Source: an uncultured virus (IMG/VR IMGVR_UViG_3300049570_000094)
Lineage: Duplodnaviria > Heunggongvirae > Uroviricota > Caudoviricetes
Length of the DNA: 64,000 bases
Strand: one strand, 5' to 3'
IMG/VR virus record: IMGVR_UViG_3300049570_000094
Shown: in pieces, positions 3,445 through 63,989 of the stretch
Layout: every line of letters begins with the position of its first letter
How positions within the stretch are numbered: position 1 is the first letter of the stretch
Position numbers and translations under genes: made by a program
Notes under the pieces: model-generated
Told to the model about the DNA's origin: nothing
Seen by the model: the letters and a program-made list of their open reading frames with translations, nothing else
Database searches by the model: none

Positions 3445-4554
3445 ATGATTTACGCGGAATTCGACTGCACCCGCTCGCGTGGCGGCATGGGTTTTCTTTT
3501 GGGTTCCTCCAATGGAGCGTTGAAGCTGCGCGGTAAATCGTATGCGAGTGAAACGGGATCGGGATTCATCTGCACGCATGACATGATGGAACATTGTGCG
3601 GAGGATGAAGGAAAGATCGAAAACGAATTCCGTGCGCTCGGGAGCGCGCCGTGGATTCGTGGAGGGATATACAGGAATTTGTTCAGTCCTGAGAGTTCGC
3701 TGTTTCATGCAACAGGTCACGATATCGGAACGACGCTGGAATCGTATTGCAACCTTGAGAAAGGAATTCCGCCCCCGCCTGAATTCGATGCGAATTGGAC
3801 GAATGAAGAAACGATTATGTGGGAGCAAATTTGGTCGGCTGCGGAGGATAATTGCCATAATATTCGTGTCCGTGAAAAGTGGCTGCCGTGCGCGATGCTG
3901 TGGGCGAAGCACGGCTACCGTCGCGCGCAGGAACGCTATCCGAATCGTAAGGCCGCGATTCGTGTATTTATCGAATTGCAGGATTTCTTCGAAACGGTGC
4001 TGTTCAATTGCAAGTCCGGCTGGTCATTGCTTGTCGCTGTTGACGAGCAAGCCGGAGAATTCGATTCGCAATTGATCTTCGATGAAGTGCCGAAGGGTGA
4101 AACGGAATTCGAAGTTCGCAACGAATCGGCACTGATGACGATTTCTCGCTATCGTCACTGGAAGCATCAGGAAGATGAAGCGCGGCTGTTGCGAAACAAC
4201 GATCAAGTGGCGAGGACATTCGAAATGTCTAAGGTCACATTTGGTAAGGCGGCGCAGGTGATGACGTTCGCAGATACCGACATAGATGCAATGCGGTGTC
4301 CGGTAGAGGAAATCATCGACAAGTATTACGAAATGATGAAGAAGCAATGGAAGGCAGGCAAAAAAGTATTTCCTGATGACGCGGATGTGTTCGACGCGAA
4401 CACTTTCTTTAACCGCGCATACCGGATGACACCGAACATACAGCGGATTCCGAAAAGCGAAGCGAAAAGGCTGTGGCAGAATTGGCAGCCGCAACGCAAG
4501 GCATTCGAATATCTGAATTATCCGGTCATGAAGAGGATGAGACATGCACATTGA
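3445..4554 (+). CDS. Hypothetical protein (HDxxEH possible metal-binding motif)
   Basis: AGGAGG SD; long ORF. Confidence 0.8.
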   Translation: MIYAEFDCTRSRGGMGFLLGSSNGALKLRGKSYASETGSGFICTHDMMEHCAEDEGKIENEFRALGSAPWIRGGIYRNLFSPESSLFHATGHDIGTTLESYCNLEKGIPPPPEFDANWTNEETIMWEQIWSAAEDNCHNIRVREKWLPCAMLWAKHGYRRAQERYPNRKAAIRVFIELQDFFETVLFNCKSGWSLLVAVDEQAGEFDSQLIFDEVPKGETEFEVRNESALMTISRYRHWKHQEDEARLLRNNDQVARTFEMSKVTFGKAAQVMTFADTDIDAMRCPVEEIIDKYYEMMKKQWKAGKKVFPDDADVFDANTFFNRAYRMTPNIQRIPKSEAKRLWQNWQPQRKAFEYLNYPVMKRMRHAH

Positions 4555-11489: not shown

Positions 11490-11565
11490 TGAGCTTGAAA
11501 TTAAGACTCGTCTGCATGTTGATTGGCGCGGTTGCTGCTTTTATCCTGATAAAATTAGGAGCGAT

Positions 11566-31937: not shown

Positions 31938-31974
31938 GGAGCGCTCCCAAATTGGGAGCGCTCCTTTATTTCTG
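31938..31974 (+). terminator. Intrinsic terminator
   Basis: GGAGCGCTCCCA/TGGGAGCGCTCC, then TTTATTTCTG. Confidence 0.85.
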
Positions 31975-61824: not shown

Positions 61825-61859
61825 AGAAATAAAGAAAGCCCCAACACGTGTTGGGGCTT
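61825..61859 (-). terminator. Terminator-like hairpin between chaperones and tape measure
   Basis: AAGCCCCAACAC/GTGTTGGGGCTT, then TCTTTATTTCT on the - strand. Confidence 0.75.
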
Positions 61860-61865
61860 CCAGAT

Positions 61866-62258
61866 TTATCTACGAGAAGGTCGTCCAAAGCCTTTTCCGG
61901 GTTTCTTTGCCTTTTCCAATTCTCTTTCCTGCTTCGCCTTTTCGGCGTGATGCTCCATGTACTCAGCATCACACTCGAACATCATCTTGAAAAAGAACTC
62001 CTTGTCTTCATCAAAATCGAACTCACGGCAGTAGCAGGCAATTTCCGAAAGTTGAAGCGGCTGTTGCGCCATGAAATACTCGCGACGCCGATTCAAGTCC
62101 AAGAACGCTCTCAAGTAGTCATGCAAATACCAAGGCAGCGAAGGTTTGTCTCTCAGCGCTTGTGGAAGTTTTCCACTCGCTTCATACATTCCTTTTAATG
62201 CCTTTTCCTCTTTACCCCAAACTAGGTGCCACTTAATTGCGGCACGGAGTCTTTTCCC
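61866..62258 (-). CDS. Tail assembly chaperone, frameshifted C-terminal part (GT-like)
   Basis: The -1 frame is open from the slippery site through MYEASG... to the stop at 61866. Confidence 0.85.
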   Translation of the reverse strand, partial: GKRLRAAIKWHLVWGKEEKALKGMYEASGKLPQALRDKPSLPWYLHDYLRAFLDLNRRREYFMAQQPLQLSEIACYCREFDFDEDKEFFFKMMFECDAEYMEHHAEKAKQERELEKAKKPGKGFGRPSRR

Positions 62259-62677
62259 AAGTTGTCCTCCGTAAACATCAGGAAGGCGTTCTGATCTTCC
62301 GCATAACCCTTGATCTTGTTACGGAACAATTCGTTCTTCAACAGCTTCGCAGCCATCGTCTGATCGAACGTTCCGTTCTGATAGGGCACGCCGTCGATCT
62401 TCACTTCGGGAAGTTTTCCGTTTACTTCTTCCAGCTTCATGTCCTTCAAAACGGTCTGTGCATAAACTTCCTGCATCAGTTCATCCGAAAGATCATGCGC
62501 AGTATCGTCATCCTGTTCTAGCGACGCACGAACCGCCTTGTACTTACGACGAAGAACGCGACGGAAATTCGGATTCTGCGCACGTGCCACTTTAACCATG
62601 ACGCCGCGTGCAATTGGAAACCAAACACCTTCGACTTCTTTCTTCTCGTCAATTACGTTGTCTTTGAAAAGGTCCAC
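62222..62677 (-). CDS. Tail assembly chaperone (G-like)
   Basis: Between tube and tape measure; E.EGVW, VARAQNP.F; AGGAG SD. Confidence 0.88.
   Translation of the reverse strand: MDLFKDNVIDEKKEVEGVWFPIARGVMVKVARAQNPNFRRVLRRKYKAVRASLEQDDDTAHDLSDELMQEVYAQTVLKDMKLEEVNGKLPEVKIDGVPYQNGTFDQTMAAKLLKNELFRNKIKGYAEDQNAFLMFTEDNLGKDSVPQLSGT
62226..62258 (-). promoter_or_regulatory. Programmed -1 frameshift signal
   Basis: G GGA AAA heptamer at 62258-62252; hairpin GUGCCGC-AAUUAA-GUGGCAC 6 nt downstream. Confidence 0.88.
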
Positions 62678-62680
62678 TTA

Positions 62681-62783
62681 TTCGCTCCTGATTTATTTCC
62701 TGAGCGCTCCTTGGAAGTAGCTCCGCACTGGCGATAGGGAGCGATCTATCAAACCGGCCGTAGGCCGGCTGCCAGTGCGGAGT
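62681..62783 (-). ncRNA. Structured intercistronic RNA (three-way junction, loop complementary to downstream SD)
   Basis: 12-bp closing stem and two internal hairpins; loop AUCGCUCC versus GGAGCGA. Confidence 0.65.
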
Positions 62784-62795
62784 TCGGTATTACGG

Positions 62796-63989
62796 CTATG
62801 CCACCGGGAAGGTGTCGATTTGCACCATGCAATCCGTATCCGGATCGCGGAGCGCAGTGAACTGCGTATCCGCCATAACATCCGAATCGAGCTGTGATGC
62901 GTTGAAAGTGAACTTCTCGTATTTGCAACGCGGCGAAGTCCAGATCATCATATTTCCGAGCGAGTCAGCAAGCAGCATCGAGAACGCGAAAACCTGCGTC
63001 TGCTTGAACATGTCTGCCTGAGCCTTCGACTCGAAATATTGACTCGCGGTGTAATTCACCATGAGCTGACCGGCGACGACACCCACGTTACCGAGAACCG
63101 AAAGGCCCTTCTGTTCGCGGTGCTGATTATCCAGCTCCACGCTCAGCGAAGAAATCGAACCCTTGGTTCCGAACGCAGTGTTGTTCTGCGTAACGCTGCG
63201 AATGCTCGCAACGCAATTCAGAATTTCCGTAGTCGAAGCGTCCACAATCGACTCACCAGCGAACGTAGTACCTTCCGCGAGCGAGCCGCCCTTGCCGATG
63301 AAATTGAACGCGCCGGTCAAGATCGCTTTCGTCTGCATCTGCAACGAAACGCCCTTCACACGCATACCTGTAAAGATATGCCGCGTCATCACCGTTGTAT
63401 CATTGAATTGCTTGACGAGCGTATAGCTGCGCTCGGTAATTCCGTTGCGAAGCATCTTGCCGTCGATATGCGCAGCAGCAAGAGCCGGAGTTTCAGCAAC
63501 AGCAGGCTGCGGAACAACCGTCAACGTCTGATCGTCCGTAACTTCCGTAACGAGGAACACATCGTTCAGAAGCGGATTCGTGAAACCCGACAGCTTCAAC
63601 CACTGACCGACAACAACGCTAGCGAATTTGCCAGCCGTAGTAGACGTAAGATTGTCCGACGCAGCCGCAACCGTGGAAATATCGCCAGCCACACCGACAA
63701 TTGCCAGCGCACTCGACCATGTTCCCATAAGAGCCGATTCAATCAAATCTTCGAACGTGCCGTACGACAGCTCGAAATTGAATGCACCACTCGGAGACGA
63801 ATCGACAAGCACGGTGTCATCGAGCATTCGATCCGAGCGAATTTCTTTCGATTTCTCGAAAGACAGATTTTCGTCAAGGGACTCTCCGGTATAACGCGTT
63901 TCAATCAGCGCGGGACTAGCCGGAGTAGTGCCCCAAACACTTTCACGCACGCGATAGAGCGCAGTGCGGTTGGCCGATGCAAGACTCAT
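62796..63989 (-). CDS. Major tail tube protein
   Basis: ESVWGTTP, RYTGESL, SKEIRSDR, FELSYG, SYTLVKQF motifs of siphoviral tube proteins. Confidence 0.9.
   Translation of the reverse strand: MSLASANRTALYRVRESVWGTTPASPALIETRYTGESLDENLSFEKSKEIRSDRMLDDTVLVDSSPSGAFNFELSYGTFEDLIESALMGTWSSALAIVGVAGDISTVAAASDNLTSTTAGKFASVVVGQWLKLSGFTNPLLNDVFLVTEVTDDQTLTVVPQPAVAETPALAAAHIDGKMLRNGITERSYTLVKQFNDTTVMTRHIFTGMRVKGVSLQMQTKAILTGAFNFIGKGGSLAEGTTFAGESIVDASTTEILNCVASIRSVTQNNTAFGTKGSISSLSVELDNQHREQKGLSVLGNVGVVAGQLMVNYTASQYFESKAQADMFKQTQVFAFSMLLADSLGNMMIWTSPRCKYEKFTFNASQLDSDVMADTQFTALRDPDTDCMVQIDTFPVA

Follow-up and report, generated by a model that had tools for sequence, protein, structure and literature searches.

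What does a strongly folded RNA do when it is placed between the tail tube gene and the tail assembly chaperone gene of a phage? Tailed phages need hundreds of tube subunits per few chaperone and tape-measure molecules, all from one operon, and the known device for the ratio of tube to chaperone is the G/G-T frameshift. We address the question for a stretch of 64,000 nucleotides (nt) of an uncultured virus of the Caudoviricetes (IMG/VR record IMGVR_UViG_3300049570_000094; the whole stretch is referred to as the window), where a three-way junction lies on the - strand between these two genes and one of its hairpin loops is complementary both to the Shine-Dalgarno (SD) sequence of the chaperone and to a nearer duplicate of it. 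We report that this element is real and conserved and, judging from comparative sequence data, that it probably sets the amount of chaperone made. Whether it does so in cis as a translational throttle or barrier, giving low and fixed chaperone initiation relative to the tube protein, is in our estimation evenly balanced. The parts of the element are given below as read on the messenger RNA (mRNA), i.e. on the - strand; MFE denotes the minimum free energy structure.

62783..62795, - strand: spacer of 13 nt from the tube stop codon to stem P1, read from the sequence
62771..62782, - strand: 5' arm of P1, CUCCGCACUGGC, from the MFE; P1 has 12 Watson-Crick pairs
62752..62770, - strand: hairpin P2, (AG)CCGGCC-UAC-GGCCGG(UU), from the MFE, with its core at 62768-62754
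62733..62750, - strand: hairpin P3, GAUAG-AUCGCUCC-CUAUC, from the MFE, with the anti-SD loop at 62745-62738
62721..62732, - strand: 3' arm of P1, GCCAGUGCGGAG, from the MFE, pairing with the 5' arm
62711..62720, - strand: pyrimidine-rich linker of 10 nt, CUACUUCCAA, with no U-tract, read from the sequence
62705..62710, - strand: site 1, GGAGCG, an SD-like duplicate, complementary to the P3 loop over 6 nt
62702..62706, - strand: CGCUC, overlapping site 1 by 2 nt and pairing with GAGCG of the SD in the nested MFE
62682..62688, - strand: site 2, GGAGCGA, the chaperone SD, complementary to the P3 loop over 7 nt

The MFE of the 76 nt is exactly the three-way junction formed by P1, P2 and P3 (-42.7 kcal/mol, z -7.64; none of 200 shuffles was as stable), P2 being lengthened by an A-U and a G.U pair out to 62770/62752, and the 131-nt stretch folds with z -5.28. 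In the nested ensemble the P3 loop is unpaired with a probability of 1.0, and the duplexes that it can form have energies of -10.2 kcal/mol (site 1) and -12.4 kcal/mol (site 2). The layout is that of an H-type pseudoknot: the anti-site occupies the 3' 6-7 nt of the 8-nt loop, 1-2 nt are left over, and the linkers comprise 10 nt plus a P1 strand for site 1 and 32 nt plus a P1 strand for site 2, where the geometry is a matter of reasoning only. Site 2 ends 4 nt from the GUG start codon (62677-62675), or 7 nt when counted from its AGGAG core. A preliminary description, made from the window alone, had given the junction together with the complementarity of its loop, over 7 nt to the chaperone SD and over 6 nt to a nearer GGAGCG; its coordinates and pairings are correct to the base and the complementarity holds. 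The window thus has what we look for in a tube-chaperone loop-target element, namely a tube gene of the PF18906 family upstream, a stable hairpin and a loop complementary to the flank of the ribosome-binding site (RBS). No ATG, GTG or TTG start codon is present 4 to 13 nt downstream of site 1, and an upstream open reading frame (ORF) starting there was rejected on this ground, the possible short ORF at locus L100 not being shared.

Taken from the window sequence alone, the element exceeds chance only partly. Loose triads of a hairpin loop and two downstream complements are frequent there and number 59 in 2 x 64 kb. An at least 7-nt complement of the SD window in a potential hairpin loop up to 120 nt upstream occurs at 2 of 94 ORF starts, the chaperone included, where the 94 are those ORF starts of the window that have an SD-like site. 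What decides in its favour is conservation in relatives.

To this end, relatives of the tube protein were collected (174 at E-values up to 0.001, PF18906 being present in 120 of 120 among the matches listed); ≈85 of the protein relatives have 45-85% identity, and 39 tube relatives make up alignment A1. The loci gathered were 80 viral, 80 metagenomic and 35 genomic, and 169 had a readable tube-gene end; dropping those with less than 150 nt downstream and merging identical downstream sequences left 123, in 72 of which the chaperone start was fixed by the GVW motif. A set of 53 loci was formed with L084 and the phages phiCbK and Pan1 added and with gaps of 60 to 300 nt kept. Locus G001 and three IMG/VR loci represent the same phage as the window and add no variation; a nucleotide search of cultured phages returned no match, contigs of four runs gave short identical pieces over the element (X17) with no variants there, and no RNA data set was among the public runs listed for it.

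On the tube-protein tree the window's own clade comprises 8 distinct loci, with tube identities to the window of 79% (L084), 62% (L083), 58% (L006), 56% (L009), 55% (L163), 53% (L007) and 50% (L085). All 8 near loci have a perfect closing stem of 8-12 bp, built from unrelated sequences, around internal hairpins, and in 7 of the 8 a CUCC-type anti-site faces two SD-like sites. The spacer between the tube stop codon and P1 is 7-13 nt in 6 of the 8 loci, and such short spacers suggest that the fold starts near the downstream edge of a terminating ribosome. The linkers from P1 to the first site measure 7-15 nt in the relatives, with six U residues after P1 in L006. At the position of P2 the relatives have a hairpin of other sequence and length, which is not alignable across them and was therefore excluded from the pair counts.

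A covariance model built on the window and L084 (R1) was searched against 100 sources and matched L083 (E 0.013) and L006 (E 0.11); the rebuilt model R2 matched L006 (E 1.4e-4), L009 (E 7.7e-4) and L007 (E 0.36). L163 and L085 were recovered by neither model and L007 weakly (E 0.13 to 0.36). The structural alignment A6 holds six sequences; L007, L163 and L085 were left out and L245, a locus outside tail genes that is described below, was included. Altogether 96.8% of its cells pair, as against 30-44% when the partners are slid, and changes on both sides are seen at 14 of 24 pairs, a number reached by none of 500 shuffles. These compensatory changes fall on 9 of the 12 pairs of P1 and all 5 pairs of P3 (14 of 17 together), and both stems are Watson-Crick throughout in this alignment. 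A plain MAFFT alignment of the 8 near intergenic regions (A2) is not structural and was set aside. Covariation across homologous tube-chaperone intergenic regions, proposed as a check in the preliminary description, is hence found in the form of a fold kept by compensatory changes in P1 and P3; that description had also named the absence of a conserved structure or of loop-SD complementarity from homologues as grounds for abandoning it, and both are present in them.

The pairing partners differ together between relatives. In all 8 sequences that carry a CUCC anti-site the duplex with the SD (-6.7 to -14.2 kcal/mol) and that with site 1 (-6.6 to -13.2 kcal/mol) can form, and the plain nested MFE already pairs the anti-site with the SD in L007 (over 9 bp) and L083 (over 7 bp). 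Concerted differences are seen in L007, where UCCGCUCC goes with GGAGUGGA/GAGCGGA (anti-site GUCCGCUCC, targets GGAGUGGAC and GAGCGGA), in L085 (GUACUCC with GGAGUAU) and in L009 (AUGCUCC with GGAGCA). Elsewhere the common layout is a stable hairpin whose apical loop has usually two complement copies, one of them at or next to the chaperone RBS. The words are UCCCCU with two or three copies of AGGGGA in a sister clade (L012, L089 and L090), CCCCGU with two copies of ACGGGG (8 loci), GUCGGG with CCCGAC (11 distinct loci including the cultured phages Pan1 and R5C), CUCCGU with ACGGAG (L044) and, in phiCbK, AUCGGGG with CCCCGAU. Within the CCCGAC clade, L036 and L114 have GUUGGG with CCCAAC, a double change from C-G to U-A; the pair in L036 was not counted formally, both alignments misplacing its hairpin.

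Exact-hexamer triads of a loop and two targets occur at 24 of the 123 distinct loci, compared with 7.8 ± 2.5 in 100 dinucleotide shuffles (largest 16) and with 10 of 123 in a control stretch inside the tube gene, and 14 of the 24 triads are SD-like words of the versions listed above. Among the 53 loci, 26 have an MFE hairpin loop with at least one exact 6-nt complement in the flank (6.7 ± 2.3 in 500 loop permutations, largest 13) and 16 have one with at least two exact targets (1.4 ± 1.1, largest 5). The SD window of a locus is also more complementary to its own upstream region than to that of other loci (mean 5.54 vs 5.03, reached by 4 of 10000 permutations) and is more strongly repeated there (mean 5.87 vs 4.84, reached by none of 10000). 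The count of distinct words, at least eight, is a more honest measure than these shuffle figures.

In the CCCGAC sister clade, for which a separate model (R3) was built that also picks up phiCbK (E 5.8e-4), alignment A8 holds 12 distinct rows. Compensatory changes are seen at 10 of its 11 hairpin pairs, and the helix between the loop and the 3' target is 89.9% paired, with changes on both sides at 2 of 8 pairs and with G.U pairs present; the helix to the 5' target is 75.7% paired and has no compensatory change. In the CCCGAC and phiCbK versions the second target copy follows right after the tube stop codon. In the tube-chaperone spacer of phiCbK (L198 3316-3471; NC_019405 58705-58860), a G+C hairpin of 11 bp presents the loop AAAUCGGGG. 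CCCCGA occurs there four times, twice at no more than 25 nt from the AUG of the chaperone; none of 300 loop permutations gives as many copies, and this spacer is a tractable model for the class. As a separate observation, the complement of the main-hairpin loop AUCCCGUU in L050 (3698-3778) is presented in the loop of a small hairpin (GACGGGAAC) ahead of it, and on its predicted structure L050 represents a kissing-loop variant of the theme.

How might such an element act? We propose that the three-way junction, with a folding energy of -41.6 kcal/mol and placed directly after the tube stop codon, would form a stable 3' boundary of the abundant tube cistron, which may serve as a decay barrier and perhaps as a weak attenuator. 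The exposed P3 loop would then pair in pseudoknot fashion with one of its two complement copies: pairing with the chaperone SD (7 bp) would block binding of the 30S subunit, while pairing with the upstream duplicate (6 bp) would leave the SD free and, in the window, would also compete with a local CGCUC:GAGCG hairpin. Low and fixed initiation on the chaperone (G and G-T) would follow from the way in which the RNA is partitioned among these mutually exclusive states, with repression as the presumed net effect. The preliminary description had suggested alternative pseudoknots that hide or expose the SD, an interpretation that is supported in part: the fold and the complementarity behind it are kept in homologues, while covariation between loop and SD is missing from A6.

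Several observations weigh against the throttle. In the window, the + strand folds about equally well (-43.7 kcal/mol, z -6.15), and a local nested hairpin already hides the SD. Folding energy does not single out a strand among relatives either: over the 53 loci the sense strand is the more stable in 33 and the antisense strand in 19 (p 0.06). A6 and A8 were fitted to the structures of the models and lean towards them, and the loop-SD helix of A6, 97.5% paired, has 5 invariant pairs out of 7, one with a one-sided change and none with a compensatory change. In the alignable clade the pseudoknot helix is consequently, to judge from the alignment, conserved and not proven, and the case for near-clade pairing rests on conservation together with the comparison with relatives that are not alignable. 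The loci are kin, and the shuffle and permutation figures overstate their independence. The 3' target of the CCCGAC and phiCbK versions flanks the SD without covering it; one of the 8 near loci, L163, has the junction with no CUCC anti-site and a single SD-like site; at the same place L093 and L097 have, in its stead, an ordinary hairpin followed by a U-tract; and in several members of the same clades the gap measures 9-35 nt and the element is missing, so that it is dispensable.

The local hairpin bears on the sign of the effect. It consists of CGCUC:GAGCG and UCCA:UGGA over the start codon (-14.0 kcal/mol), so that the SD is unpaired with a probability of 0.29 (71% paired) in the absence of any pseudoknot, and opening it costs ≈10 kcal/mol when forced. 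The preliminary description missed this hairpin when it called site 1 a decoy: the 6-nt complement is there, and being a decoy is only one of its possible roles. With the SD already masked locally, the loop may activate rather than repress: pairing of the loop with site 1, which overlaps the local anti-SD by 2 nt, would open the hairpin and turn chaperone translation on, and in versions with the first target at the tube stop codon terminating ribosomes would choose the target and couple chaperone to tube translation. We regard this activator or coupling pseudoknot, the main rival of the throttle, as rather unlikely. Six loci have the arrangement that it calls for, with one target starting 0-2 nt past the tube stop and a second immediately 5' to the SD (Pan1, L061, L168, L078, L169 and L118), whereas the targets of the window's clade both lie 3' of the junction, beyond the reach of a terminating ribosome. 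The local hairpin is found again in L084 and, altered, in L009, but is absent from L083, L006 and L245; moreover site 2 is the SD itself and fits the loop better than site 1 (7 bp, -12.4 vs -10.2 kcal/mol), and the helix to the 5' target has the modest pairing and the lack of compensatory change given above.

The precedent for activation comes from plasmids. Asano and Mizobuchi, and Praszkier and Pittard, reportedly described pseudoknot control of repZ/repA translation in IncI-alpha and IncB plasmids. The systems are alike in that the loop of a leader hairpin pairs with a short complement next to the downstream RBS, translation of an upstream frame influences the fold, and the outcome sets the initiation rate. 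The pseudoknot is essential for initiation of RepZ (PMC8053102). The plasmid systems differ from the phage element in that the pseudoknot activates, an antisense RNA opposes it, there is one target and not two, and the setting is a replication leader; there is no sequence or structural homology, and in the window the target is the SD itself.

A second alternative is that the fold is structural punctuation only, a stabilising 3' hairpin, a processing site or a leaky terminator by which the tube mRNA outlasts or outnumbers the downstream message, and that the loop-SD complementarity has no function. An extremely stable fold that follows directly on the stop codon of the tail protein made in the greatest amount, with stems that are almost all Watson-Crick, agrees with this, as do the canonical hairpins with U-tracts in L093 and L097, the U6 after P1 in L006 and a second terminator-like hairpin before the tape-measure gene of the window. 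U-runs are thus present in some relatives (L006, L093 and L097); in the window there is none, the fold is branched, P1 is followed by CUACUUCCAA, and the terminator scan reported no intrinsic terminator at 62721-62782. Punctuation also leaves unexplained why loops with two or more flank targets are found at 16 of 53 loci against 1.4 for permuted loops and why the loop and both targets change jointly between clades, and we consider it unlikely as the whole explanation.

Does the element belong to a known family? A search of the window region with Rfam 15 gave chance-level matches only (E 1.1 and 3.1 elsewhere in 900 nt, and E 4.5 over 15 nt), and none of 19 related loci had a match at the gathering score, in agreement with the preliminary description, whose author recognised no known riboswitch or ribozyme. 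A self-cleaving ribozyme is without support: no Rfam ribozyme matched, and the junction nucleotides are not conserved in relatives. With respect to a riboswitch core, the unpaired positions conserved in A6 are confined to the loop (A)U(C)GCUCC and its targets, and the junction strands and P2 vary freely among relatives. A full-text literature search, judged mainly from the openings of abstracts, found no description of such an element. Hiding an SD through alternative pairing is an established mode of control, and the element is therefore not a new category of it. The translational riboswitches and RNA thermometers thiM, preQ1-II, ROSE and fourU use SD/anti-SD platforms, in which mutually exclusive pairings likewise hide or expose the SD; site 1, CGCUC and the P3 loop of the window could act as anti-anti-SD, anti-SD and competitor, respectively. 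Unlike these platforms, the element has no evident ligand pocket or temperature-sensitive mismatches and no Rfam match, and its place is intercistronic, within a structural operon of a phage, rather than in a 5' leader.

A further parallel is c4 of the phages P1 and P7, an upstream RNA with loops complementary to a downstream RBS region and with a second target copy elsewhere in the transcript. Here too a structured RNA precedes, in the same transcript, the RBS to which its loop is complementary. The c4 RNA is released from its transcript by processing and serves in immunity control as a free molecule, whereas the element of the window has no Rfam match and another gene context. By analogy, the ≈62-nt junction might be excised, or resist decay, and mask SDs in trans, on chaperone messages and possibly on other SDs of the GGAGCG type. 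The closed 12-bp stem would shield both ends of such a small RNA, the P3 loop is fully exposed, a few other genes of the window have GGAGCG SDs (e.g. at 11558 and 23060), and L245 has the same module outside the tail context. We nevertheless hold this to be very unlikely, given that the Rfam search of the region alone returned neither c4 nor another family, that there is no promoter and no processing signal, and that the target copies are always in cis within ≈100 nt.

Since both strands fold equally well, the inverted repeats and the three motif copies (two direct, one inverted) could also be a DNA-level element, bound by a protein or extruded as a cruciform, with RNA folding incidental. The P1 and P3 pairs that are all Watson-Crick in A6 are compatible with this, and the loop is an instance of GGGAGCG, the top over-represented 7-mer of the window (51 copies vs 7.9 expected). 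A hairpin loop is an unexpected place for the motif of a duplex-binding protein, however, and there are G.U pairs in the sister-clade hairpin and pseudoknot helix, one target is always in the RBS region of the next gene, and the loop is retained in relatives in which no genome-wide enrichment of the motif is seen; a DNA-level role appears to us hardly credible.

With regard to the throttle and its wider meaning, a conserved RNA controlling the rate of initiation where the tube and chaperone genes meet would, if true, represent a second and unrecognised layer of stoichiometry control. Tentatively, and with considerable doubt, we suggest that the versions form a widespread undescribed class of phage intercistronic RNA switches, in which the loop of a post-tube hairpin or junction would toggle between two complement copies and make translation of the chaperone and tape-measure protein dependent on the time since transcription or on ribosome traffic over the tube gene. 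Versions that differ in sequence and share the same logic across many siphophage lineages constitute a natural set of compensatory mutants, and members in cultured phages of Caulobacter, Dinoroseobacter and Pseudanabaena, with phiCbK, Pan1 and R5C among the phages concerned, make the idea directly testable. The element is also a potential compact and tunable part for setting expression ratios in synthetic operons.

The tail-operon genes in this part of the window are all on the - strand; ORF and protein lengths are in amino acids (aa), and the features that surround the element are the following.

62796..63989, - strand: tail tube gene, 397 aa, with its stop codon UAG at 62798-62796 (PF18906 Phage_tube_2, E 1.1e-30; phrog_290)
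62222..62677, - strand: tail assembly chaperone gene, G-like, 151 aa, with a GUG start (phrog_313, E 4e-7)
62252..62258, - strand: slippery heptamer G_GGA_AAA, in phase, leading into the -1 frame with a 107-aa ORF
61834..61861, - strand: terminator-like hairpin, 12 bp followed by UUUAUUUCU, between the second chaperone ORF and the tape-measure gene

The assignment of the two flanking genes in the preliminary description, tube before chaperone, is confirmed by these family matches. A tblastn search with the tube protein led to annotated tube proteins of cultured phages of Dinoroseobacter, Pseudanabaena and Caulobacter (30-36% identity), and the chaperone N-terminus and its GVW motif are common to the window and its relatives. 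The intergenic gap is 118 nt, and a read-through or extended tube product was rejected, the genes being only that far apart. The heptamer lies 36 nt upstream of the stop codon of the 151-aa chaperone ORF, and from 62318 the -1 frame runs on without a stop into the 107-aa ORF (61866-62189, - strand), which belongs to PF23812 (Phage_TAC_18). An in-phase heptamer near the end of the first ORF together with an open -1 frame is the classic layout of a G/G-T tail-chaperone pair, with the frameshift itself being a prediction, and the 107-aa ORF product may be made only as a fusion. It is followed by an ORF of tape-measure size (2775 aa), and the hairpin at 61834..61861, canonical in its terminator-like form, is positioned directly upstream of the tape-measure SD, AGGUGA. 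In L084 (940-1100), the closest distinct relative, the chaperone frame breaks after ≈13 codons, with the N-terminus and the rest in different frames, which reflects either an indel or an assembly error in this 2.6-kb metagenome contig.

No 6-mer of the window is as over-represented as GGGAGC, with 79 copies vs 23 expected, and no 7-mer as GGGAGCG, with a z of 15 for the counts given above. The two strands have 40 and 39 copies of GGGAGC, which are evenly spread, mostly intragenic and without bias for gene direction (e.g. 31938-31965); the P3 loop represents one instance of GGGAGCG (62738-62744, + strand). The 6-kb loci of relatives show no clear enrichment of the motif, which is possibly a modification or recognition site.

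Finally, a scan of viral contigs for the pattern of a loop and two sites gave 63 stretches, approximately the chance expectation, and after screening with the model three of these were the window's own phage, one was new (L245) and one was marginal (L213). L245 (364-471, equal to L264 ≈3964-4076), on a viral contig of 45% G+C, has two hairpins and is closed by a stem of 6 bp; its loop is AAUCGCUCC, and GGAGCGA occurs twice, the second copy 4 nt upstream of an AUG. The pattern by which it was found fixes the loop and the sites, and only the junction is independent evidence (R1 E 0.0023). Its context is not that of tail genes: upstream is a 185-aa ORF of no known family, and downstream a 59-aa ORF is followed by GNAT, formyltransferase and Polysacc_synt_2 genes. 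The module may thus be portable, with L245 having it before sugar-modification genes.

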